Source: Candidatus Villigracilis adiacens (GTDB taxonomy: Bacteria > Chloroflexota > Anaerolineae > Anaerolineales > Villigracilaceae). From it: a stretch of DNA of 64,000 bases. The stretch is from the NCBI GenBank assembly GCA_016703605.1, contig JADJBU010000008.1:91819-155818 (forward strand), given 5' to 3'. Below the pieces are notes generated by a model. It was not told where the DNA came from, searched no databases, and saw nothing but the letters and a program-made list of their open reading frames with translations. Each line of letters starts with the position of its first letter. The first letter of the stretch is position 1. Of the stretch, positions 12,508-64,000 are shown piece by piece. The position numbers and the translations under genes were made by a program.

Positions 12508-12796
12508 GTACGACAAGGTTCACCTTGTCCTTCTGACGGCGCAAAGTGAACTTTGCGGTACGACAAGGTTCACCTTGTCCTTCTGACGGCGCAAAGTGAA
12601 CTTTGCGGTACGACAAGGTTCACCTTGTCCTTCTGACGGTGCAAAGTAAACTTTGCGGTACGACAAGGTTCACCTTTCGACGGGCAAAGTACTTCGGTAC
12701 GACAAGGTTCACCTTGTCCTTCTGACGGTGCAAAGTAAACTTTGCGGTACGACAAGGTTCACCTTGTCCTTCTGACGGCGCAAAGTAAACTTTGCG
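12508..12796. repeat. BIME-like tandem array of a 50-nt double-hairpin unit (5 full copies plus one 39-nt variant)
   Basis: Unit GTACGACAAGGTTCACCTTGTCCTTCTGACGG(C/T)GCAAAGT(G/A)AACTTTGCG at 12508, 12558, 12608, 12697 and 12747; shortened copy at 12658-12696. Confidence 0.9.
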
Positions 12797-12797
12797 G

Positions 12798-12832
12798 CAA
12801 AAAAATACCCCGATACATCGGGGTATTTTTTT
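12798..12832. terminator. Bidirectional rho-independent terminator
   Basis: AAAAAAATACCCCGAT-AC-ATCGGGGTATTTTTTT between convergent genes. Confidence 0.85.
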
Positions 12833-12848
12833 GAGGTTGGGTAAGCAA

Positions 12849-31877: not shown

Positions 31878-32723
31878 ATGTTCAAAGCATCCCTGCGTTC
31901 CGCGGTATATCAGGCTGAAAAAAAATTGCAGCGCCTGCGCTTCCCGTCCGCACCCGCAAATCTGCCCATTCTGCTCGGAATTTCCTTCCCGAAAAGCGGA
32001 ACTCACCTGCTCGACCAGATCCTGCTCGGCTTTGCAAACGTCGCGCCGTATGCCAAACGCCTGCATTCGTTTTACGCCGAATACGAAGGCGAGAGCGGAA
32101 AGAAACGCGAACCGCAACAGGCGCTCGACTGGCTCGACTCGCTTCGCCCGCGCGACATCGCCTCCGCCCATCTCTTCGCCCGACCCGAAGCCGTCGCCCG
32201 CGTCTGTAGCCCAAAATTCGCGCCCTACTTCATCTTCCGCGACCCGCGCGACGTGGTCGTCTCGCACGTCTTCTACGTCACCGACATGGAAGCCCGCCAC
32301 GTCCATCACGACTACTACCAATCCCTGCCCGACTTCAACGCGCGTCTCAAAATCAGCATCCTCGGCAGACCCGACGCGCGAGTGGAATTCCCAAACATCG
32401 CCGCCCGCTTCGAACCTTATCTCGGCTGGCTCGATCATAAGGAAGTATTGACGCTTCACTTCGAGGACCTGATCCACCGCCGCGAGTCGACTCTCCTCTC
32501 GATCATGGATCACCTCCTCAGCCGCGTCCCGCTTCCCACCAGCCGACAGTTGATCCTCGCTTCGCTTGAAGCCTCCATCAACCCGACAAAATCCCCGACC
32601 TTCCGCTCTGGCAAGACCGGCGAATGGAGGAAACATTTCACCGACGAACACAGGGAGATATTCAAAGATGTGGCGGGTGATCTGTTGGTGAAGTTGGGGT
32701 ATGAGAAAGGTGGGGAATGGTGA
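31878..32723 (+). CDS. Sulfotransferase (PAPS-dependent)
   Basis: ISFPKSGTHLL (5'-PSB), FRDPRDVVVS (3'-PB), FRSGKTGEWRKHFT; stop codon supplied by the heptamer array. Confidence 0.88.
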   Translation: MFKASLRSAVYQAEKKLQRLRFPSAPANLPILLGISFPKSGTHLLDQILLGFANVAPYAKRLHSFYAEYEGESGKKREPQQALDWLDSLRPRDIASAHLFARPEAVARVCSPKFAPYFIFRDPRDVVVSHVFYVTDMEARHVHHDYYQSLPDFNARLKISILGRPDARVEFPNIAARFEPYLGWLDHKEVLTLHFEDLIHRRESTLLSIMDHLLSRVPLPTSRQLILASLEASINPTKSPTFRSGKTGEWRKHFTDEHREIFKDVAGDLLVKLGYEKGGEW

Positions 32724-32770: not shown

Positions 32771-33718
32771 ATGCCCTGCTCCCTCATCATCCGCGCCTAT
32801 AACGAAGCCCAGCACATCGGACGTTTGCTCGAAGGAATCAAACAGCAGACCGTCCGCGATGTGGAGGTTATTTTGGTTGATTCCGGCTCGACCGACGCGA
32901 CGGTTTCCATCGCCGAATATTTTGGCGCGAGAGTCGTCCACATCCCCCCGGCGGAGTTTACCTTTGGGAGGTCGCTCAACCTGGGGATTAAGTCCGCGAG
33001 CCGCGAATTGATCGTCATCGCCAGCGCGCATGTCTACCCCGTCTACCCCGATTGGCTGGAGACTCTGCTGCGTCCATTTCAAGATGATAGCGTGGCATTG
33101 ACCTACGGCAAACAGCGCGGACACGCAGTCTCGAAATATTCCGAGCATCAGATATTTCATCAATGGTATCCAGATGCAGGTAGTCTCGATCAAGCCACAG
33201 CATTTTGCAATAACGCCAATTCTGCCATTCGAAAAAGTTTGTGGAAGCAACATTCCTACGACGAAACGCTCACTGGCTTGGAAGATTTGGAATGGAGCAA
33301 GTGGGCGAAGGGGCAGGGACACAAGATCGCCTACGCCGCCGAAGCCGAGATCGTCCACATCCACAACGAGACGCCGCGCGGAGTCTATAACCGTTACCGC
33401 CGCGAAGCCATGGCATTGCGGAATATTTATCCTGAAACAAATTTCAATTTTTATGACTTTTTGCGCCTGACCTTTACGAACATCGTCAGCGACCTTTGGC
33501 ATTCCTCGCGCGAAGGGGTTTTCTTGAAAAGTTTTATCTCCATCTTCTGGTTTCGATTCGCCCAATTCCACGGCACCCGCATGGGACACCGCGAGACCAG
33601 CCTTGTAACGCCGCAATTGCGCGAGACGTTCTATTATGCGCGGGAACGAAAGAGGAAAGAGGAGAGAAAGAGGGATGTGGAGCCGATTCGGTATAATGAT
33701 AGGAATGGTGAATGGTGA
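32771..33718 (+). CDS. Glycosyltransferase family 2 (rhamnosyltransferase-like)
   Basis: SLIIRAYNE, VILVDSGSTD, FCNNANSAIR, EDLEW; stop codon lies within the heptamer array. Confidence 0.9.
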   Translation: MPCSLIIRAYNEAQHIGRLLEGIKQQTVRDVEVILVDSGSTDATVSIAEYFGARVVHIPPAEFTFGRSLNLGIKSASRELIVIASAHVYPVYPDWLETLLRPFQDDSVALTYGKQRGHAVSKYSEHQIFHQWYPDAGSLDQATAFCNNANSAIRKSLWKQHSYDETLTGLEDLEWSKWAKGQGHKIAYAAEAEIVHIHNETPRGVYNRYRREAMALRNIYPETNFNFYDFLRLTFTNIVSDLWHSSREGVFLKSFISIFWFRFAQFHGTRMGHRETSLVTPQLRETFYYARERKRKEERKRDVEPIRYNDRNGEW

Positions 33719-33787
33719 ATGGTGAATGGTGAATGGTGAATGGTGAATGGTGAATAGGTAATAGTGAATAGTGAATAGGTAATGGTG
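33704..33787 (+). repeat. Heptamer array x12 upstream of the four-helix-bundle gene
   Basis: (AATGGTG)7 AATAGGT AATAGTG AATAGTG AATAGGT AATGGTG. Confidence 0.95.
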
Positions 33788-33801
33788 AACAGGAGTTTGA
33801 T

Positions 33802-34251
33802 GTGAGCAGCGATAATATTCAAGGGTTGGAGACATTGGAGACTTGGAAAAAAGCAAGGGCATTTTCGCTTGTTGTTTACAAGGAAGTTCTGCCGCAATTG
33901 CCTGCTGATGAGAAATGGCATTTGAATCAGCAAATTCGACGTTCCGCTCAAAGCGTCCCAGCCAATCTTGCCGAGGGACATGGACGATTTTATTATCAAG
34001 ACAACGTCCGTTTTTGCTATATCGCTCGCGGCTCGCTGACAGAGACCTACACTCACCTTCTTCTTGCTCGTGACCTGGGATATATTTCAAGCGGACTCTT
34101 TGATCGTCTGAAAAGTCAAATCGAAGAACTCATTCGAATTATCAATGGGTACATCGCCTATTTGAAACGTTCTAAACGCGGCGAAAAAGAACCCGGAGCC
34201 AATTACGCTGTTCGCGATGAATCATCAGAGTATTTGACTGAAGATATCTAA
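33802..34251 (+). CDS. Four-helix-bundle protein (23S rRNA IVS protein / Avd-like family)
   Basis: LETWKKA, LPADEKWHLNQQIRRSAQSVPANLAEGHGR, YIARGSLTET, ARDLGYI; AGGAG RBS then GTG. Confidence 0.93.
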   Translation: MSSDNIQGLETLETWKKARAFSLVVYKEVLPQLPADEKWHLNQQIRRSAQSVPANLAEGHGRFYYQDNVRFCYIARGSLTETYTHLLLARDLGYISSGLFDRLKSQIEELIRIINGYIAYLKRSKRGEKEPGANYAVRDESSEYLTEDI

Positions 34252-34256
34252 TCTCC

Positions 34257-34326
34257 CCCTATTTCCCTATTCCCTATCCCCTATCCCCCATTCCCTATTC
34301 CCTATCCCCCATTCCCCATTCACTAT
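34257..34326 (+). repeat. Inverted heptamer array (about 10 units) downstream of the four-helix-bundle gene
   Basis: TCCCTAT/CCCCTAT/CCCCCAT/TCCCCAT/TCACTAT units, complementary (about 6/7 with G-U) to the upstream ATGGTGA/ATAGTGA units. Confidence 0.92.
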
Positions 34327-34334
34327 TTCTCCCC

Positions 34335-54997: not shown

Positions 54998-56176
54998 ATG
55001 AATCTCAACACACAATTCGAACTCATCCGGCAATCTGCGACGGTTGCCATGGCGGACAGGATCCTGGCGCTCAAGGCAGGCGGAAGGAACATCATCGGTT
55101 TGCAGGTCGGCGACCCGGATTACGGCACGCACCCCGCCATTGCAGAAGCGGCGCTCAAAGCGATTCAAAGCGGGTTGACCCATTACGGTCCTTCACGCGG
55201 ATATCCAGACCTGCGTGAAGCAATCGCAGCAAAATTGAAACGCGATGAAAACGTGATTTACGATCCCGCCTCGGAGATACTGGTCACCCACGGCGGCATC
55301 CATGCCTATTACACCGCCATGCAGTCGATTCTCAACCCCGGCGACGATGTCTTGATCCCCGACCCATCCTGGGCAACCCATTCCAATATGGCGATCATGC
55401 TGAGGGGAAACGTGATCCGCGTGCCTGCTCCGGCGGAAAACAACTTCATCCCGCATTTCGAATCTTGGGAGAAGGCTCTCACACCCAAAACACGGATCAT
55501 CGTGTTGAACTACCCCTCCAACCCGACCGGCGCATACCCAACACGGGACTATCTGCAAAAATTACAAGGCTTCGCAAAGGCGCATAACCTGTGGATCGTC
55601 AGCGATGAAGTGTATGGAAGTTTGTATTATGGAGGGAAGCCGACATGTGCCGCGGCGTTCGAAGGCGCAAAGGAGCGGACGATCCTCGTCAACAGCCTGT
55701 CGAAGTCTTATGCGATGACGGGCTGGCGGGTCGGTTTTCTTGCCGCGCCCGCATCCGTGATCGATAACGCCTTGAAAGCCGGGCAAAACTCGATCACCTG
55801 TGTCGCCCCTTTCATTCAAAAAGCCGCCGCGTTCGCATTGACCGACCCTGAGATTCAACAGGTCACAGCCAGGATGCGAGCCGGGTATGCCCATCGCCGC
55901 GAATCGGTTTTGAGGATCGCGCGCGAACTTGAAAGCGACAAAGTCCTCGTTACGCCTCCGCAAGGCGCGTTCTATTTCTTCCTCGACCTGCGTCCTTTGA
56001 AGATGACCTCGCTCGATATCTGCGAAAGAATCCTTGATGAAGCGGGCGTGGGACTGGTTCCCGGTTCGGCGTTTGGGACCCAGGGAGAAGGTTTCGTGCG
56101 GATGTGCATTGCCGCCTCCGATGAAGATGTGGAGAATGGGTTTCGGAAGATTGTGGAGTGGGCGGAGAGACGTTAA
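54998..56176 (+). CDS. PLP-dependent class I/II aminotransferase (aspartate/aromatic)
   Basis: GDPD, NYPSNPTG, SDEVY, SLSKSYAMTGWRVG. Confidence 0.92.
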   Translation: MNLNTQFELIRQSATVAMADRILALKAGGRNIIGLQVGDPDYGTHPAIAEAALKAIQSGLTHYGPSRGYPDLREAIAAKLKRDENVIYDPASEILVTHGGIHAYYTAMQSILNPGDDVLIPDPSWATHSNMAIMLRGNVIRVPAPAENNFIPHFESWEKALTPKTRIIVLNYPSNPTGAYPTRDYLQKLQGFAKAHNLWIVSDEVYGSLYYGGKPTCAAAFEGAKERTILVNSLSKSYAMTGWRVGFLAAPASVIDNALKAGQNSITCVAPFIQKAAAFALTDPEIQQVTARMRAGYAHRRESVLRIARELESDKVLVTPPQGAFYFFLDLRPLKMTSLDICERILDEAGVGLVPGSAFGTQGEGFVRMCIAASDEDVENGFRKIVEWAERR

Positions 56177-56178
56177 GT

Positions 56179-56276
56179 AGTTATCAGTGAGTAGTGAGTA
56201 GTGAGTAGTGAATGGTGAATGGTAAGTAGTGAGTAGTGAATGGTGAATGGTGAATGGTGAATAGTGGATAGTGGAG
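56179..56276 (+). repeat. Heptamer array x14, all units RGT-N4
   Basis: AGTTATC (AGTGAGT)3 AGTGAAT GGTGAAT GGTAAGT AGTGAGT AGTGAAT (GGTGAAT)3 AGTGGAT AGTGGAG. Confidence 0.92.
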
Positions 56277-56281
56277 ATGAT

Positions 56282-57094
56282 ATGAGAGTTGCATTTCAGG
56301 GCGAACCGGGGGCTTATTCGGAACAGGCAGTGTTCGAATATTTTGGCGAGGTGGAAACCGTCCCTTGCGAATCTTTCGATGTGATGTTCGATTCGGTCGC
56401 CTCGGGCAAAAGCGACGCCGCCCTCGCCCCCATCGAGAATTCCCTCGCCGGGAGCATTCATCAAAACTACGACCTGCTCCTGCGCCATTCCCTGCACATC
56501 ACGGGTGAGTATTTTTTGCGCGTCCGGCATTGTCTGATCGCAAACCATGGGGTCAAGAAGGAGGAATTAAAGAAAGCCATCAGCCATCCGCAGGCTTTGG
56601 GTCAATGCGCCGGGTATTTGCACAGCTGCGGCATCAAAGCGGAACAGGTCTACGATACGGCGGGAAGCGTCAAGATGTTGAAGGAATCCGGCGCGCGCGA
56701 CACTGCCGCCATTGCATCGAAACGCGCTGCAAAGTTATACGGAATGCAGATATTGGAAGAGGGAATTGAAGACAACGCCGAGAACTACACCCGCTTCCTT
56801 GCTGTGCAGCGCGAACCTGTCGCCCCGCAAGGCAACGCAAAAACTTCCATTGTGTTTACCCTGAAGAATGTCCCCGGGTCGCTTTTCAAAGCCATGAGCG
56901 TCTTTGCCCTGCGCGACATCGACCTGACCAAGATCGAATCGCGCCCGCTGGCGGGCAAGCCCTGGGAATATTTGTTTTATATCGATTTCCTCGGCTCTAT
57001 CAATGAAGAGCCGGCCAAACGCGCGCTCGATCATCTCGGCGAATATGCCATCATGCTGCGCGTGTTGGGTTCGTATCCGCGCTTCATCCCTTGA
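56282..57094 (+). CDS. pheA: Prephenate dehydratase
   Basis: VAFQGEPGAYS, PIENS, SHPQALGQC, NYTRF, LTKIESRP ACT domain. Confidence 0.95.
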   Translation: MRVAFQGEPGAYSEQAVFEYFGEVETVPCESFDVMFDSVASGKSDAALAPIENSLAGSIHQNYDLLLRHSLHITGEYFLRVRHCLIANHGVKKEELKKAISHPQALGQCAGYLHSCGIKAEQVYDTAGSVKMLKESGARDTAAIASKRAAKLYGMQILEEGIEDNAENYTRFLAVQREPVAPQGNAKTSIVFTLKNVPGSLFKAMSVFALRDIDLTKIESRPLAGKPWEYLFYIDFLGSINEEPAKRALDHLGEYAIMLRVLGSYPRFIP

Positions 57095-57518
57095 TGATCT
57101 CGACCAATCCCCTCAAGCCCAATTCATAAGAGCGCCAGCCGAAGCCGGTTACTTTGCCTTTACACACGGCAGACACAAATGATGTATGCCTGAATTCTTC
57201 ACGCGCATACACGTTCGAAAGATGCACTTCGATCACTGGAATCACAATCGCTGAGATTGCATCACGCAACGCCACAGACGTATGAGTGTACCCACCCGGG
57301 TTGAAGACCACGCCCGAAGCCCATGTCCGCGCATCGTGCAGGGCATCGATCAACGCGCCTTCATGGTTCGACTGCAAACAGCTCACTTCGGCGCCCAACT
57401 CCTTGCCCAATGCGATCATCTTCTGGTTGATGTCATCCAATGTCATCGAGCCGTACACATCCGGCTCACGTGTGCCAAGTAAATTTAAGTTTGGTCCGTG
57501 CAGGATCAATATTTTCAT
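57084..57518 (-). CDS. aroQ: Type II 3-dehydroquinate dehydratase
   Basis: LHGPNLNLLGTREPDVYG, SNHEG, NPGGYTHTS, EVHLSN. Confidence 0.97.
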   Translation of the reverse strand: MKILILHGPNLNLLGTREPDVYGSMTLDDINQKMIALGKELGAEVSCLQSNHEGALIDALHDARTWASGVVFNPGGYTHTSVALRDAISAIVIPVIEVHLSNVYAREEFRHTSFVSAVCKGKVTGFGWRSYELGLRGLVEIIKG

Positions 57519-57574
57519 TCAGCCTCTCGTACTGCAAAATTTATTTTGCAACTTCACACAACCTGAAGGTTGCG

Positions 57575-59089
57575 CTACAAAACTTCTTCCAAATCATCCA
57601 CGTTCACCAACTCCACCCTGCCGATCTCAACTGGCAAAGCAAAGCGAATGGATTTTGCATTCTTCTTTTTATCCACCCGCATGGCTTGGATGATTTTCCC
57701 GCGCGGCATTTCAGCAGGGATTTGGATGGGCAGTCCCAACGCTGACAACGTGGACTCAATCGCCTCAACTGTGCTTTGACTTGCCAGCCCAACCCGAGCC
57801 GCATACCTCGCCTCAGCCGCCGTGCCGATGGCGATTGCCTCGCCATGCCGCAGCTCAAACTTGCTGACAAGTTCCACCGCATGTCCAATTGTGTGCCCCA
57901 GATTTAATTTCGCGCGGTCTCCCTTTTCATACGGGTCTTCTTCGATGACTTTTATCTTCACCGCCATTGCGCGTTTAACGACTTCTTCCAGATTCGACTT
58001 AACCCAGTCCATGCCCTGCTGGCACATGGCGAAGAGGTCTGGGTCTGAGATGATGCCGTGCTTGACCACCTCCGCCATGCCGGAGCGGAGCTCGCGATCT
58101 GTCAGCGTAAGCAAAAGGCTTGGGTCTGCAATGACCAGCTTCGGCGGATGGAAAGAGCCGATGAGGTTTTTTCCTTCCGGTAGATCAAAGCCAGTCTTCC
58201 CACCCAGCGAAGCATCCACCATGGAAAGCAGGGTCGTGGGAACGCCGATCCAATCGATGCCGCGCATGTAGGTGGACGCGGCAAAACCGGTCATGTCGCC
58301 GATCACGCCGCCGCCGAGGGCAATGACGGCGCTTTTGCGGTCGAGCCCGTTTTCGAGAAAAGCTTTCCACAGGCGCGAAACGGTTTCGAGATTTTTATGC
58401 TCTTCGCCCGCAGGCACGATAACGGATTTGGCGTTGAAGAGCGTTTGAATTTTTTCGAGATGATGCTTTGCTACGTTTTCGTCAGTGACGATGATGGGGT
58501 TTTGCAAAGATGGCAAGTTGAAAACTTGCCCTACGATGATGTCATATTCACCCATCGCGGAGAGATGATGCCTGCCGAGTTTAATTTGGGCTTCGCGCGC
58601 GTTTTGCTCGGAAGGCTTGTTGTCAACATGGTGTTTTAGTGTGAACGAGTTGTAATGTTCTTTGCGTTTTTCAAGCAACGCCGCGAGTTTATTTTTGAGA
58701 TCACCTGCCAACAGCGGACGTTTGCCCGGCTCATGCTGAATGCGGTTGAGCAGGGTTGGGAGTTCCGCCATGAGCAAAAGGATTTTGCCATTCGCTTCGG
58801 CGTAGTCACGGTTTTCATTGCGCAGCAACGCGCCGCCGCCAAGGGCGATGATTTTGTGTGAGTCTGTCACGCTGGAAGCGTGACCTACAAGTTCTTTTAA
58901 CGCGGCAGTTTCCATGTCACGAAAAGCGGTCTCGCCCTGCTGTTCCATGATCTGCGGAATGGACATGCCTGCATTTGTTTCGATCACGCGGTCAAGGTCT
59001 ATGAACGCGAGTTTGAGACTCCGCGCCAGAAGTTTGCCGAGGGTGCTTTTGCCCGTGCCGGGCGGTCCGTAGAGGAAGATATGTTTCAT
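57575..59089 (-). CDS. aroB: Bifunctional shikimate kinase / 3-dehydroquinate synthase (AroK-AroB fusion)
   Basis: GPPGTGKS..DLDRVIE..GGG (AroK), then GGGVIGD, PTTLL..DAS.GGKTG, NLGHTIGHA (AroB). Confidence 0.93.
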   Translation of the reverse strand: MKHIFLYGPPGTGKSTLGKLLARSLKLAFIDLDRVIETNAGMSIPQIMEQQGETAFRDMETAALKELVGHASSVTDSHKIIALGGGALLRNENRDYAEANGKILLLMAELPTLLNRIQHEPGKRPLLAGDLKNKLAALLEKRKEHYNSFTLKHHVDNKPSEQNAREAQIKLGRHHLSAMGEYDIIVGQVFNLPSLQNPIIVTDENVAKHHLEKIQTLFNAKSVIVPAGEEHKNLETVSRLWKAFLENGLDRKSAVIALGGGVIGDMTGFAASTYMRGIDWIGVPTTLLSMVDASLGGKTGFDLPEGKNLIGSFHPPKLVIADPSLLLTLTDRELRSGMAEVVKHGIISDPDLFAMCQQGMDWVKSNLEEVVKRAMAVKIKVIEEDPYEKGDRAKLNLGHTIGHAVELVSKFELRHGEAIAIGTAAEARYAARVGLASQSTVEAIESTLSALGLPIQIPAEMPRGKIIQAMRVDKKKNAKSIRFALPVEIGRVELVNVDDLEEVL

Positions 59090-59166
59090 AATGAAGAATG
59101 CAGAATGATGAATGAGGAATGGGGCGTGTTTACTTGTTTACTTGTCTACTTGTTTCCATGTTTACT
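59090..59166. repeat. Heptamer array (AATG-N3 x5) followed by an octamer array (TGTTTACT-type x5)
   Basis: AATGAAG AATGCAG AATGATG AATGAGG AATGGGG; TGTTTACT TGTTTACT TGTCTACT TGTTTCCA TGTTTACT. Confidence 0.85.
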
Positions 59167-59169
59167 TTC

Positions 59170-60345
59170 TTACTCCCAAAACACATGCGGAATATTATCC
59201 ATCGGCAGGTCTTCGAGGGTGGCTTTGCGCAAGGACTCAAAGCGCGGTTTCATTTCGTTCATTGAGTCACCGCCGAGTTTTTCGAGGAGCGCATCTGCCA
59301 AAACGAAGGCGACCATTGCCTCAAGAATCGGCACCGCGCGCGGAACGGGGCAGAAGTCGGAACGTTCGTATTTGGTGGGGGCATTCTCGCCAGAAGCAAG
59401 GTCAACGGTTTGTTGTGGGACGAGGGTTGTAGCAATCGGTTTCATCGCAGCGCGGATGATGATGGGCTGTCCGTTGCTTACTCCGCCTTCGGTGCCGCCG
59501 GCTCTGTTGGTTGAACGTTGAAGGTCGAAGGTTGAAGGTTGAAGGTTGATTGGGTCATGCGCTTTAGTTCCTAATCGTTTTGCATTTTCAAATGCGTCGC
59601 CGACTTCGACACCTTTGATCGCTTGAACGGACATGATGGCATGAGCCAGTTTGGCTTCGAGGCGTTTGTCCCATTGCACGAAACTACCCAAGCCAACGGG
59701 TAGATTGAGCGCAACGATTTCAAGGACGCCGCCGAGGGTATTTTTGCTGTGGATGGTCTTTTCGATTTCGGCGCGCATCTTTTCAGCGGAGGATTCGATT
59801 GGGCAACGGATATCCGATTCTTCGGCGCGAGTGAAGCGTTCTTCATAGGGCAAATCGCCAAAATCGGTTTGCACTTCGCCAATTGACGAAACGTATCCGC
59901 CAACGATGATGCCGAACTGGGCAAGGAAATGTTTACACACAGCTCCAGCCGCAACGCGCATGGTGGTCTCACGAGCGGAGGCGCGCTCCAATGCAGGGCG
60001 CAAATCTTTATAGCCATACTTGACTGCGCCGGTTAAGTCCGCGTGACCTGGGCGGGGAGCGGTCATCGGCTCGATGGCTTTGCCCTTCCATTTGACATGG
60101 TCATCGTTTTGCACGAGCAAAGCAATCGGCGCGCCGGTGGTTTCGCCGCCCATCACGCCGCCGAGAATTTGCACCGTGTCTTTCTCGATCTTCATGCGCC
60201 CGCCGGAGCCGTATCCCTGCTGGCGGCGGGTGAGTTCTTTGTTGATAATGTCTGGCGAGAGGGGAAGCCCGGCGGGGATGCCATCGAGAATGGTGGTGAG
60301 TGATGGTCCGTGGGATTCACCGGCGGTGAGAAAGCGTAAGGGCAT
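59170..60345 (-). CDS. aroC: Chorismate synthase
   Basis: LRFLTAGESHG, PRPGHAD, ERASARET, NRAGGTEGG, KPIAT, RSD; contains an in-frame heptamer tract at 59509-59550. Confidence 0.96.
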   Translation of the reverse strand: MPLRFLTAGESHGPSLTTILDGIPAGLPLSPDIINKELTRRQQGYGSGGRMKIEKDTVQILGGVMGGETTGAPIALLVQNDDHVKWKGKAIEPMTAPRPGHADLTGAVKYGYKDLRPALERASARETTMRVAAGAVCKHFLAQFGIIVGGYVSSIGEVQTDFGDLPYEERFTRAEESDIRCPIESSAEKMRAEIEKTIHSKNTLGGVLEIVALNLPVGLGSFVQWDKRLEAKLAHAIMSVQAIKGVEVGDAFENAKRLGTKAHDPINLQPSTFDLQRSTNRAGGTEGGVSNGQPIIIRAAMKPIATTLVPQQTVDLASGENAPTKYERSDFCPVPRAVPILEAMVAFVLADALLEKLGGDSMNEMKPRFESLRKATLEDLPMDNIPHVFWE

Positions 60346-60355
60346 GGGGTCTCCG

Positions 60356-60418
60356 AGTGGAAAGTGGTGAGTGGAAAGTGGAAAGTTATCAGTTGTCAGT
60401 GAATAGTGATAAGTATTC
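60356..60418. repeat. Heptamer array x9, all units AGT-N4
   Basis: AGTGGAA AGTGGTG AGTGGAA AGTGGAA AGTTATC AGTTGTC AGTGAAT AGTGATA AGTATTC. Confidence 0.88.
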
Positions 60419-60446
60419 AAAAGAGGAAAGAAGAAAGAAGACGGAA

Positions 60447-61271
60447 TTATGATTCGATAGCTTGATAAAGAATGTCGCGCGGCGGGTTGTGTCCTGTCCA
60501 TTTTTCGAAGGCGAGGGCGGCTTGTTCGATGAGCATGCCCAAGCCGGTGGAGGCGTTCAGTCCCTGGGCGCGGGCGTCGCGGACGAGTTTGGTCTCACGT
60601 GGGTTATACACTAAATCATAAACGAATGTGCGTTTCGATAAAACCGTATTTTCAGGCAGGGGTGAGGTTTCGATGTTGGGTGTCATGCCGAGAGGAGTGG
60701 TGTTGACGAGTAAGTGGAAAGTTAAAAGTGGAAAGTCGGCGAGGTTGGTAATTGGTAATTGGTAATTGGTAAATGAGTCTGCGAGTTTTTGCGCTTGTTC
60801 AATTCGACGGGCCGCAATTGTGACGTTCCAGCCATCGTTAAGCAAAGCATAAACAACGGCTCTGGCAGAACCTCCCGCACCGAGTACCAACGCAGAATGC
60901 GGAATGATGAATGATGAATTTGAAACCCTCTTCAAATCGGAAAGGAAACCTGGCGCGTCGGTATTGTCTCCGATGAGTTTGTCGTCTCGCATATAAATGG
61001 TATTGACTGCGCCAATGGATTTTGCTGTTTGCGTGAGTTCATCCATGAACCCGATCACATTTTGTTTATGCGGAATGGTGACATTGAGTCCGTGGATTTC
61101 GCCTGCACGGACACGGGTTAGGAGATTAAAAAGTTCTTGCTTATCATCCGGGTGAATGGGGAATAGAGAATAGTTACCTTGCAAGTTAAACGCACTCAAA
61201 GCAGCCGTATGAATCTTTGGCGAAAGTGAGTGTCCTAAAGGGTAACCGATCAAACCGAGTTGATAATTCAT
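60447..61271 (-). CDS. aroE: Shikimate dehydrogenase
   Basis: GYPLGHSLSP, NVTIPHK, GAVNT, NTD, LGAGGSAR, DLVYNP, GMLIEQA; two in-frame heptamer tracts. Confidence 0.95.
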   Translation of the reverse strand: MNYQLGLIGYPLGHSLSPKIHTAALSAFNLQGNYSLFPIHPDDKQELFNLLTRVRAGEIHGLNVTIPHKQNVIGFMDELTQTAKSIGAVNTIYMRDDKLIGDNTDAPGFLSDLKRVSNSSFIIPHSALVLGAGGSARAVVYALLNDGWNVTIAARRIEQAQKLADSFTNYQLPITNLADFPLLTFHLLVNTTPLGMTPNIETSPLPENTVLSKRTFVYDLVYNPRETKLVRDARAQGLNASTGLGMLIEQAALAFEKWTGHNPPRDILYQAIES

Positions 61272-61281
61272 CTTTACCTGT

Positions 61282-62637
61282 TTACTTGTTTCCTTGTGTA
61301 CGTAATTTCTCAAGGACTTCAAAGTAGTTTGGGAAAGTCTTGGAAACACAGGAGGGATTTTCGATGGTGACGCCGTCAACGCGCAAGCCGATGAGGGAGA
61401 ATGCCATTGCCATGCGGTGGTCGTTGTAGGTTTGGATGGTTGCAGGTTTGAAGGTTGAAAGTTGAAGGTTGAAGGTTGGGTGGATGGTCATGCCGTCTGC
61501 GTGTTCTTCGACTTGCACACCTAAACGGGCGAGTTCGGCGCAGGTTGCGTGGACACGGTCTGTTTCCTTCACACGGGCGGAAGCAATGCCGCGAATTCGT
61601 GTTGGTGACGAAGCGAAGGGAGCGACGGCGGCGAGGGTTTGGGCTGTGTCTGGGATGTCGCGCATGTCTACGTCTACGCCGTGCAAGAGCGAGTGACCAG
61701 TGACCAGTAAACAGTTATCAGTTTCTTGTACAGTACAGCCCATTTGTTGAAGGACATCAAGAAAGGCGATGTCGCCTTGAACAGACTTGCGCGAGATGTT
61801 CTCTACTTTGACAGTCCCACCGCAGATGGCAGGGGCAGCGAAGAAGTAGGAGGCGGCGGAGGCGTCACTTTCAAGAGGATACGAGTTACGAGTTACAGAT
61901 TGCGTAACTTGTAACTCGTAACTCGCGGGCGGCACACGAAAAAAATCATAACCACGCCGTTCCACTTCCACGCCAAAGTCTTGCATGATGGAGAGAGTCA
62001 TATCCACGTAGGGTTTAGAGTTGAGGTCGGTGGTGAGCTTCACTTCAACGGGAGTTTGAGCGTACGGGGCAACCATCAATAAAGCCGATAAGAATTGAGA
62101 GGAAATATCTCCCGCAATCGTTGTCCTTCCGCCCTTCAAGCCCGATGCCGTAATTTTTACTGGCGGGCAAATCTGCCTTCCGCCTTCCGCTTTCTGCATT
62201 GGCTGAATATCACACCCCAATTGTGCCAATGCCTCCACCAAATCCCCGATCGGACGTTCGCGCATTCTAGGTTCGCCATCCAGAATATATTCGCCGTTTC
62301 CAAGAGTCAGAAAGGCGGAAAGGAATCTGGCGGCAGTGCCTGCGTTGCCAATGAAGAGTTCCGCTTTCTTTGCAGGAATTTTCCCGCCCAGCCCGGTAAC
62401 CGTCATGGAGAAATTTGCTTCATCCAGTTGAACGTCGAAGCCGAGAGTTTGCAGGGCTTTGGCGAAGTAGCGCGAGTCGTCGGAGAAGAGGGCGTTGGTG
62501 AGATGAGTTGTCCCGTTTGCAAGGGCGGCAATGAGCAAGGCGCGGTTGGTGAGGGATTTCGAACCGGGCACGCGGACGGTGGCGTTGAGGGGGTGGTGGA
62601 TGGGGGGGATGCGGAGGGAAGGGGGGAGAGTGGGCAT
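61282..62637 (-). CDS. aroA: 3-phosphoshikimate 1-carboxyvinyltransferase (EPSP synthase)
   Basis: PGSKSLTNR, GNAGTAARF, SSQFLSALL, KETDR, DHRMAM, KTFP; three in-frame heptamer tracts. Confidence 0.96.
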   Translation of the reverse strand: MPTLPPSLRIPPIHHPLNATVRVPGSKSLTNRALLIAALANGTTHLTNALFSDDSRYFAKALQTLGFDVQLDEANFSMTVTGLGGKIPAKKAELFIGNAGTAARFLSAFLTLGNGEYILDGEPRMRERPIGDLVEALAQLGCDIQPMQKAEGGRQICPPVKITASGLKGGRTTIAGDISSQFLSALLMVAPYAQTPVEVKLTTDLNSKPYVDMTLSIMQDFGVEVERRGYDFFRVPPASYELQVTQSVTRNSYPLESDASAASYFFAAPAICGGTVKVENISRKSVQGDIAFLDVLQQMGCTVQETDNCLLVTGHSLLHGVDVDMRDIPDTAQTLAAVAPFASSPTRIRGIASARVKETDRVHATCAELARLGVQVEEHADGMTIHPTFNLQLSTFKPATIQTYNDHRMAMAFSLIGLRVDGVTIENPSCVSKTFPNYFEVLEKLRTQGNK

Positions 62638-62714
62638 GGTGGGGAGTGGAAAGTGGGGAGTGGAAAGTGAATAGTGAATAGTGAATAGTGAATAGTGATC
62701 AGTGAACAGTGAGA
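62638..62714. repeat. Heptamer array x11 (RGT-N4) between tyrA and aroA
   Basis: GGTGGGG AGTGGAA AGTGGGG AGTGGAA (AGTGAAT)4 AGTGATC AGTGAAC AGTGAGA; contains the tyrA stop codon. Confidence 0.9.
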
Positions 62715-63556
62715 GAGTGGTAGGCGGATTGTGATTCGTTGAGGAGCGATTCAAGTTTGGTGAAATCTTCTGAAGATAACGCAGACTCGATCTCTGCCAG
62801 TTGACTTTGCATTCCACGCAGAGCATTTAATACATTTTCGCGGTTGGATTGTAAGACGCCCAACATCATGGAAGATGATGTGCCTGCGAGTCTACTCGTG
62901 GACTTGAAGCCGGGTCCAACAAAAGGGGCGACGTCTTCGGGTGTAGTGCGTGCCAGTGCAGACGAGATCAGAAATGGCAGATGGCTTGTGGAAGCAAGGA
63001 TGCGGTCATGGTCTACGGCATCCAGCGTTTTGCCTTTGGCACCGAGGGCTTCGATGATCTGATATGCGGCAGAGATGGCGCGAGGCGATGTGCGATCCAG
63101 CGGAGTCAACAAAAAAGGCGCAGCGTAGTAAAGCGTTCTCTCTGCATTCGCCAGCGAAAGCTTTTCTTTGCCGCAAATGGGATGCCCGCCGATGGGGTCG
63201 AAGCGTTCAGGCAATTTTGCCATCGCTTCGACGACCAATCGTTTTGTGGAGCCCAAGTCCATGACGATGCAGGGATGGGGAATGGTAATTGGTAATTGGT
63301 CAATGAGTGTGATGATTGACTGGACTGGCGCTGACAGAATCACAACATCAACATCGGCGGGGAGGGTGGCAGGGTCGCTGTCGGCGTAGTCCACGATATG
63401 TTGGGACAGAGCAAGCTCGAGCGTGGCAGGATGCGGGTCAATTCCATAAAGAGCCGCACATTTGCCGCGCAGTCCCAATGCCAACGAGCCGCCCATCAAG
63501 CCCAATCCGATGATGGCGATTTTTGATTCGGAGAGTGTAAAGTTTATGTCTTCCAT
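62699..63556 (-). CDS. tyrA: Prephenate dehydrogenase
   Basis: [30 protein letters not shown]; start at 63556. Confidence 0.92.
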
Positions 63557-64000
63557 TGGGTAATTGGTAATTGGTAATTGGAGATTACCAATCTCCTCTC
63601 CACCGCCTCCGCCACCGCTTTGACCTGCTTCACCATTTTGGCAAAGGCTTCGGGTGTGAGCGACTGCTTGCCATCGGAAATGGCGTGTGGCGGGTCTTGA
63701 TGGACTTCGACGATGAGACCGTCGGCGCCAGCGGCGATGCTTGCTTTGGCAATGGATTGCACATACGCCGAGTCGCCGGTGGAGTGGGATGGGTCCATGA
63801 CAACTGGGAGATGCGTGAGTTTCTTGAGCACGGGCACGGCGTTGATGTCGGTGGTGTTGCGCGTGGCGGTTTCGAATGTGCGGATGCCGCGCTCGCAAAG
63901 AATGACGCGATGATTGCCGCCGTTGAGAATGTATTCGCTCGCCATGAGCATTTCTTCGATGGTGGCAGACATGCCGCGCTTGAACAAGACGGGCGTGCGG
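63544..64000 (-). CDS. aroF: DAHP synthase (type I-beta), C-terminal part; the gene starts beyond the window
   Basis: [33 protein letters not shown]; C-terminus ([13 protein letters not shown]) is encoded by a GGTAATT heptamer tract. Confidence 0.9.

Follow-up and report, generated by a model that had tools for sequence, protein, structure and literature searches.

Tandem arrays of seven-base units (heptamers) have been observed since 1990 in bacteria, filamentous species among them, to our knowledge without a mechanism having been described. Mazel and co-workers are said to have reported in 1990 the short tandemly repeated repetitive (STRR) heptamers of heterocystous cyanobacteria, which comprise three specific words and are also mentioned in PMC4692102. 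Heptameric long simple sequence repeats (SSRs) were described in Xanthomonas (GGGAATC) and in Nostoc PCC 7120 (GGGGA(C/T)T) (Rehm et al., 2015; PMC4692102), and a general excess of heptanucleotide long SSRs in bacteria was reported by Mrazek et al. (2007), as cited in PMC4692102 and PMC4679880. TAACTGA direct repeats are known from marine Beggiatoaceae, cyanobacteria and Bacteroidetes (MacGregor, 2015; PMC4679880). Here, heptamer arrays were analyzed in a window of 64,000 nt from Candidatus Villigracilis adiacens (GCA_016703605.1, contig JADJBU010000008.1, positions 91,819-155,818), whose genome comprises 4.44 Mb in 26 contigs with 55% G+C. In an AroA comparison the nearest relatives of the host were uncultured Anaerolineales (Chloroflexota) metagenome-assembled genomes (MAGs), not cyanobacteria, and the window sequence recurs in many wastewater, activated-sludge and biofilm metagenomes. 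An earlier sequence-only reading had proposed that the arrays of the window share a purine-G-T (RGT) triplet in a fixed seven-base phase (RGT-N4), and had attributed this to a templated or protein-selected process. The present results make it probable that the arrays are the known kind of heptanucleotide simple-sequence array, seeded locally, changing unit by unit and filtered by translation; RGT is not their general register.

Arrays were called by Tandem Repeats Finder (TRF) and by a stricter lag-7 scan of our own (at least three copies, high identity). TRF returned 66 rows in the window, mainly of period 7 or its multiples, and genome-wide 815 rows of period 7 as compared to 159 of period 6 and 258 of period 8. 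In the strict scan of the whole genome 189 period-7 arrays were obtained, 11 of these within the window, as compared to 31, 11 and 7 arrays of periods 8, 6 and 9, respectively; a third-order Markov simulation of the genome yielded no strict period-7 array. The heptamer arrays are real and far above chance, and every array to which the sequence-only reading had pointed was recovered by TRF. With ~15% of the genome being non-coding, 131 of the 189 strict arrays were intergenic or overlapped a gene end. The other 58 (31%) lay inside predicted genes, and in nearly all of these the coding strand was the stop-free strand. All features that define a bacterial heptanucleotide long SSR in the broad sense were found, namely at least three tandem copies, an excess of period 7, concentration at gene ends and copy variation by whole units. 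The arrays comprise 184 distinct unit types genome-wide, the commonest being GGTAATT (86 arrays), which together with RGTGAAT, AGTGGAA, AGTGAGT, GGTTGAA and GGTCGAA forms the abundant related families of the lineage. Oriented to the C-poor strand, the units contain 37% A, 35% G, 20% T and 7.5% C.

In the three main arrays of the window each unit starts with RGT (14/14 at 56179-56276, 9/9 at 60356-60418 and 11/11 at 62638-62714), exactly as counted previously. The extension of this triplet to the whole window did not hold, as 18 of the 29 period-7 TRF rows contain RGT on any strand and rotation and 11 do not. The array at 59090 (AATGAAG) and most of that downstream of the four-helix-bundle gene (34257, CCCTATT) had been named as exceptions, but many more exist, among them the arrays at 32723 (AATAGGA), 32739 (CCCATTC), 33648 (GAAAGAG), 60420 (AAAGAAG), 60902 (GAATGAT) and 62175 (GCCTTCC). 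The reverse complement of the 32739 array reads mostly GGGGAAT, with one GGT unit in four. The chance expectation was calculated by exact permutation of the letters of each unit over 14 strand-by-rotation choices, and a composition-matched heptamer was found to contain RGT with a probability of 0.43-0.51. Arrays are not independent of each other. Of the 184 distinct unit types, 46% contained RGT, as compared to an expectation of 40% (z 1.85). At a TRF score of at least 50 it was present in 61% of 46 unit types (49% expected, z 1.9) and in 72% of arrays (51% expected). RGT was not the top-ranked R/Y-N-N triplet, RCC, RAA and YAC scoring equally high.

A register-free alignment by expectation-maximisation (EM) over the 14 strand and rotation states, without a prior motif, gave 3.70 bits for all unit types versus 3.42 ± 0.10 for shuffled units. 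For strong arrays 5.12 versus 4.51 ± 0.16 bits were obtained, and the base following the anchoring G was T in 50% and A in 41%. A hidden common register was rejected on the grounds that the alignment rose no more than 0.3-0.6 bits above shuffled units; this is also the outcome of the genome-wide positional logo that had been suggested as a check. At the aro operons of other Anaerolineales and in randomly drawn samples from congeners RGT was found in 49-52% of unit types versus 45% expected (z <1). In other Chloroflexota families with heptamer arrays, where AAGGATG is the leading unit, its share was 31-33% versus 40-43% expected. An RGT start in all or nearly all arrays, as expected of an RGT-N4 class, was thus not observed, and RGT is the mark of a few abundant related families of the lineage rather than a rule of the arrays. 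Arrays within 2.5 kb of each other share units twice as often as after shuffling (63 versus 30 ± 5 in direct and 42 versus 29 ± 6 in inverted orientation), and a single window therefore has a more uniform look than the genome as a whole. The apparent register arises mostly from composition, family abundance, this local sharing of units and the free choice of strand and phase.

Variation within arrays was analyzed in 49 strict arrays with at least five copies and a consensus containing RGT. Variants at register positions 1 to 7 numbered 49, 2, 10, 29, 17, 20 and 19, so that GT varied seldom (12/146 variants). The quietness of GT is thus real, but a protection specific to GT was not found. Per array, a consensus G varied in 6% of cases before T, 5% before A, 8% before C and 35% before G; GT did not differ from GA and GC (Fisher p = 0.78), while GG differed from the rest (p = 3e-11). 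A varied in 17-22% and T in 9-13%, and T following G was no more stable than T following A. The supposedly free positions are for the most part A/G purines that exchange for each other (A>G 79 and G>A 49 of 210 variants). The variable site is the purine 5' of a G (35% of arrays), a context-dependent A/G dimorphism. This hot purine is the R of the proposed triplet, and had therefore not been counted as variation.

The orientation of the arrays follows a rule that is compatible with translation. In co-directional spacers, arrays nearer to the upstream stop carried the G-rich strand as sense (102:42), whereas arrays nearer to the downstream start carried the C-rich strand as sense (88:23; p = 1e-15 for the stop-near versus start-near rule). 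The upstream stop codon lay inside the array in 70 cases, and arrays filling a whole spacer showed no preference (22:19). The same polarity rule has been published for the GGGNATC repeats of Xanthomonas and Nostoc (PMC4692102). Over all spacer arrays the G-rich strand was sense in 125 and antisense in 130 cases. RNA-level recognition of RGT was rejected, since orientation follows the proximity of stop or start and the RGT strand is equally often sense and antisense. Neighboring arrays agreed in orientation in 52% of cases without long runs; array orientation is thus not tied to replication, and a replication-linked strand bias was rejected. ATG, GTG and TTG, a Shine-Dalgarno (SD) sequence, TGA and TAG are all impossible on a sense strand that is free of G. 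The G/A/T strand, in turn, has stops in all frames, because a heptamer shows all seven triplets in every frame within 21 bases. The C-poor composition and the polarity would thus both reflect a translational filter. A G-quadruplex reading was discarded, as the units lack G-tracts: in the three main arrays a unit has at most two consecutive G, except for GGTGGGG and two AGTGGGG units at 62638-62658.

The arrays of the aro region and an array-flanked gene of family PF05635 (coordinates of the window) were as follows.

33703-34327, plus strand: PF05635 gene (33802-34251) between two arrays (TRF, Pfam).
56179-56276, plus strand: 14-unit heptamer array (sequence; TRF periods 7, 14, 28 and 35).
59090-59121, plus strand: AATG-N3 heptamer array of ~4.6 units by TRF, without RGT, in the aroC/aroK-aroB spacer.
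59127-59167, plus strand: octamer array TGTTTACT x5, belonging to a genome-wide period-8 family (TRF).
59509-59549, plus strand: GGTTGAA x5.9 within aroC (itself on the minus strand), in-frame loop NLQPSTFDLQRST (TRF, translation).
60356-60418, plus strand: nine-unit AGT-N4 array in the spacer between aroE stop and aroC start (sequence).
60420-60441, plus strand: AAAGAAG x3, without RGT, adjoining the aroE stop (TRF).
60712-60772, plus strand: AAGTGGA x3.6 and TTGGTAA x4, in frame within aroE (TRF).
60902-60919, plus strand: GAATGAT x2.6 within aroE, without RGT (TRF).
61273-61301, plus strand: octamer array TTTACTTG x3.6 at the junction of aroA stop and aroE start (TRF).
61438-61478, plus strand: GGTTGAA x5.7 within aroA, translated TFNLQLSTFKPA (TRF).
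61692-61708, plus strand: AGTGACC x2.4 within aroA (LVTGHS) (TRF).
61880-61925, plus strand: inverted pair TACGAGT x2.4 and CGTAACT x3.3 within aroA, loop SYELQVTQSVTRNSY (TRF).
62175-62194, plus strand: GCCTTCC x2.9 within aroA, without RGT, in a length-variable loop (TRF).
62638-62714, plus strand: 11-unit RGT-N4 array comprising the entire tyrA/aroA spacer, the last tyrA codons and the tyrA stop (62699-62701).
63283-63300, plus strand: TGGTAAT x2.6 within tyrA (TRF).
63559-63581, plus strand: GGTAATT x3.3 where tyrA adjoins the next gene (TRF).

The 56179 array (units AGTTATC, AGTGAGT, AGTGAAT, GGTGAAT, GGTAAGT, AGTGGAT and AGTGGAG) fills the spacer from the stop of an aminotransferase gene (TAA, 56174-56176) to the GGAG (56272-56275) and ATG (56282) of a prephenate dehydratase gene, both flanks being assigned by Pfam. 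The 60356 array reads NNNNACT on the gene strand and leads into the SD context CACTCGGAGAC. The 62638 array is built of GGTGGGG, AGTGGAA, AGTGGGG, AGTGAAT (x4), AGTGATC, AGTGAAC and AGTGAGA. As had been noted from the sequence, the arrays at 32723, 33718 and 62699 supply the stop codon of the upstream gene. The aro operon contains a fused shikimate kinase/3-dehydroquinate synthase gene (aroK-aroB, 57575-59089) together with aroC, aroE, aroA and tyrA; the aminotransferase gene and pheA lie upstream on the opposite strand. The period-8 family, which co-occurs with the heptamers, has a consensus of about RGTANACA/TGTNTACY and 88 TRF rows scoring at least 40. Elsewhere in the window, six tandem 50-base units with two hairpins each (GACAAGGTTCACCTTGTC, CGCAAAGTGAACTTTGCG) lie directly 3' of a stop codon (12508-12797), with a hairpin that resembles an intrinsic terminator behind them (12800-12835); the 50-base repeat had no match in Rfam.

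The birth of arrays from local sequence is seen at two junctions of the operon. In many congeners tyrA ends in ...TTC ACT GGC AAC TGA (FTGN*), which represents two heptamers (TTCACTG and GCAACTG) that share only ACTG, and following FTGN* units of the NNNACTG type continue to the aroA start. Upstream of aroC, the stretch between AACTGA, the context of the aroE stop, and ACTGGAG, that of the SD sequence, is spanned by arrays of the NNNACTG type. Constrained local sequence is therefore the source of the AGT in the proposed register, which reads ACT on the gene strand. In the host the tyrA/aroA spacer of 61 bases consists entirely of heptamers and the last tyrA codons are array units; in four relatives (L003, L007, L011 and L026) there is no spacer, and the stop of tyrA overlaps the start of aroA (TAATG or CAATGA). 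Arrays are seeded from whichever short sequence is present at weakly constrained places, namely in spacers, next to stop codons and SD sequences, and in surface loops within genes.

Once present, arrays grow and shrink by one to three units. In independent metagenomes, the tyrA/aroA array showed losses of 14 and 21 bases at 62657, and the right arm of the 33802-34251 gene showed gains of 7 bases at 34262 and, in one case, of 8 bases at 34256. Copy-number polymorphism, which had been suggested as a check, was thus found, in metagenome contigs rather than in reads. TRF also detected higher-order periods of 14, 21, 28 and 35 in the arrays.

Inside genes, arrays were found in aroC, aroE, aroA and tyrA. 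The aroC loop NLQPSTFDLQRST has an ordinary length when aligned with solved chorismate synthases. The array-bearing loops of AroA are hypervariable in 15 congeners, with a periodicity built on other units; the loops orthologous to TFNLQLSTFKPA consist of different 7- or 8-base periodic units. One 42-base AroA loop is built of AATTACC, AATTACG, AATCTCT, CCACTTT, CTTTCCT or CTTCTCA in different congeners and is 63 bases long in the host genome and one other; the loop SYELQVTQSVTRNSY is 21 bases shorter in most congeners, with AATTACC, AATCTCT, CCACTTT and other units. On the gene strand the host sequence at 61880-61925 reads (GAGTTAC)3 followed by its reverse complement (GTAACTC)3, a potential in-gene hairpin common to congener L009. 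In two more distant families no periodicity was observed in the AroA loops. Metagenome contigs cross the in-gene arrays without gaps. Metatranscriptome contigs carry three of them (61692-61708, 61880-61925 and 63283-63300) unchanged, although DNA carry-over is possible; splicing or other removal of in-gene arrays was thus not supported. The in-gene arrays undergo concerted evolution in place, largely without change in length. Likewise, arrays in general are homogenised in place, and orthologous sites of sister species differ in their units.

Seeds probably consist of two or three imperfect units with only a core in common, and blocks of 14 or 21 bases probably duplicate together. Duplication of multi-unit blocks from imperfect seeds yields a constant core and a variable remainder, and needs neither a template nor a protein that recognises the sequence. 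A translation filter would then act on the products. The G/A/T strand, with stops in all frames, would be tolerated as sense directly after a stop, and the G-poor strand, offering no starts, no SD-like runs and almost no stops, as sense before starts and inside genes; such a filter would yield units strongly poor in C on one strand.

Several points weigh against this account of local seeding, unit-wise change and translational filtering. Plain slippage of the polymerase accounts neither for a period of 7 nor for the origin of arrays inside essential genes without frameshifts. Counted by array, RGT is in excess, in the host (54.7% of 808 arrays genome-wide versus 42.8% expected, z 7.8) and in congeners (60-62% versus 46-49%). 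The ACT(G) core keeps its phase across many species at the two junctions while other positions change; re-seeding from constrained anchors may maintain this phase. The gene predictions came from a crude home-made caller, and the copy-number polymorphisms were read from assembled metagenome contigs, not from reads. Finally, the arrays co-occur with PF05635 genes, which hints at a protein-dependent process.

The 33802-34251 gene, identified by Pfam as PF05635 (23S rRNA intervening sequence protein, four-helix bundle), is flanked by GAATGGT x12.4 (33703-33789) and by CCCTATT/CCCCATT x10 (34257-34327). Among the 10 PF05635 genes of the host genome, nine are bracketed by mutually inverted arrays (heptamers in eight, octamers in one), as compared to 7-11% of all predicted genes that have an array nearby. 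The octamer case, with period-8 arrays as inverted arms, is G000:C22:577619-577936. The cassettes lie in operon spacers, with the G-rich arm behind the stop of the upstream gene and the C-rich arm in front of the SD sequence of the next one. PF05635 counts correlated with the arrays of the aro locus in 23 relatives (Spearman 0.70, p = 2e-4) and with arrays in samples of 20-97 kb from 12 genomes (0.74, p = 0.005). In 41 Chloroflexota genomes sampled away from PF05635 genes the correlation was 0.55 (p = 2e-4), whereas other repeat periods did not correlate significantly there (0.21). Strong arrays were found in 16 of 25 PF05635-positive but 1 of 16 PF05635-negative genomes (Fisher p = 2.7e-4), with densities of 5.3 and 0.46 per 100 kb, respectively. 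In all these comparisons the genomes are related, the samples small and the MAGs fragmented, so that arrays and cassettes alike are under-assembled, and causality may run either way. A link between array abundance and four-helix-bundle gene counts had been anticipated from the sequence and was borne out in this form.

Of the earlier attribution to a templated or protein-selected process the argument from RGT fell, RGT being absent from about half of the unit types and without excess across unit types and lineages, while a protein-linked origin in general keeps some plausibility. It is possible, though clearly less probable than local seeding, that a PF05635 (Avd-like) system generates or spreads heptamer arrays by recognising their period or structure rather than RGT; on this view the cassettes with inverted arms would be autonomous, with solo arrays and tracts within genes as their by-products or relics. 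Bracketing and correlation both speak for such a system. However, cassettes may instead need arrays for their insertion or expression, and the correlation of counts is moderate: with a single PF05635 gene, genome G121 reaches 37 arrays per 100 kb, whereas G009 has four such genes and no array in 80 kb. Loss of repeats and cassettes alike from fragmented MAGs also counts against it, as does the derivation of the tyrA/aroA junction arrays from local coding sequence, and we know of no biochemical function of the family beyond that of Avd in diversity-generating retroelements. The arrays between 56179 and 62714 have a single orientation, lie 22 kb from the nearest PF05635 gene and are not cassette arms. 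G121 and G076, of another Chloroflexota family (loci L168-L169 and L178-L179), have a very high density of heptamers, mostly AAGGATG/TTCATCC (20-37 strong arrays per 100 kb), but only one or two detected PF05635 genes. The co-occurrence is nevertheless the best lead on the origin of the arrays, and a testable one.

It is unlikely that the arrays owe their abundance to selection for a function at the RNA level rather than to mutational bias. Candidate functions are safety nets of stops in all frames, G-free leaders, arms of processing hairpins of the RNase III type and G-quadruplexes. The strong polarity rule, the 70 arrays that contain the upstream stop, the slight excess of inverted pairs (42 versus 29 ± 6) and the array-bearing gene segments in metatranscriptome contigs would agree with a function of this kind, and similar positional rules have been read as functional for GGGNATC (PMC4692102) and TAACTGA (PMC4679880). 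Selection on RNA, however, leaves the period of 7, the 184 unit types and the arrays in enzyme loops unexplained. Arrays are also nearly absent from PF05635-negative sisters with the same operons (G015 and G016), and those that fill a whole spacer have no orientation preference. The arrays at 56179, 60356 and 62638, in addition, lack a complementary partner and have few G-tracts.

Recognition or writing of RGT in constant phase with a spacing of 7 bases, the other four positions being free, by a sequence-specific factor or a template is improbable. The 34 of 34 units that start with RGT in the three main arrays are in its favor, as are the array-level excess in host and congeners, the G of position 2 that varies in only 2 of the 49 long arrays, and the ACT core kept in phase across species at two junctions. 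The cyanobacterial words CCCCAGT, CAACAGT and TTGGTCA also contain RGT on rotation. The same is true of TAACTGA (PMC4679880). Yet RGT is missing from 54% of unit types and 45% of arrays, its excess at the level of types is small (z 1.6-2.1) with RCC, RAA and YAC as high, GA and GC are as stable as GT, and the 184 unit types argue against a single template. Outside the genus, other Chloroflexota families show no excess (31% versus 40%) with AAGGATG dominant, and GGGAATC of Xanthomonas does without RGT.

Least likely of all, the RGT/ACY families might be the preferred substrate of a PF05635-dependent array-propagating system; they have the core CAGT/ACTG in common with Beggiatoa TAACTGA and with STRR1 and STRR3 of cyanobacteria. 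At this core a four-helix-bundle protein of ring shape would hold or prime the slipped strand, and if true this would explain both the array-level excess of RGT in the genus and why arrays are nearly absent from genomes without PF05635.

A conserved register, had it been found, would have pointed towards a recognising protein or a template; what remains of it is a modest array-level excess of RGT in the genus. Instead, the lineage shows the birth of arrays from local coding and ribosome-binding sequence, whole-unit change between natural populations and concerted reshaping inside essential enzymes. Among the Chloroflexota, arrays are almost restricted to genomes bearing PF05635 genes, and thereby the question of what makes heptamer repeats becomes testable.

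Compared to the systems described so far, the host arrays resemble the SSRs of Xanthomonas and Nostoc in being tandem 7-base units spread genome-wide, mostly between co-directional genes and in variable copy number, with the G-rich strand as sense after stops and antisense before starts and without preference for a replication strand. Unlike these, the host has 184 unit types instead of one consensus and about one third of its strict arrays in frame within genes; its units have few G-tracts and thus offer no G-quadruplex rationale. Recalling the TAACTGA repeats, units of the type NNACTGN make up the sense strand of the arrays at the tyrA/aroA and aroE/aroC junctions, with the TAACTGA-like GATAACT, GTAACTG and ATTACTG directly upstream of SD sequence and start and stops in all frames, and such arrays lie upstream of aroA and aroC in congeners as well. 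AGTTATC, the reverse complement of TAACTGA, is a unit of the 56179 and 60356 arrays, but TAACTGA/AGTTATC is a minor word in the host, where most arrays are built of other words, and orientation relative to the gene is not fixed. Like the STRR sequences, several tandem-heptamer families are scattered through the genome of a filamentous bacterium. However, the host belongs to another phylum, the unit sequence is almost free and CCCCAGT, TTGGTCA and CAACAGT are not among the common units, so that neither host nor words are those of cyanobacterial STRRs in the strict sense. With the 23S rRNA intervening sequences and free-standing PF05635 (S23p, Avd-like) cassettes the host shares the placement of its PF05635 genes (9/10) between inverted arms, although its cassettes lie in operon spacers and not in rRNA. 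Full-text literature searches retrieved no report of such heptamer repeats in Anaerolineae, and the Anaerolineales are a new host lineage for known heptanucleotide repeats.

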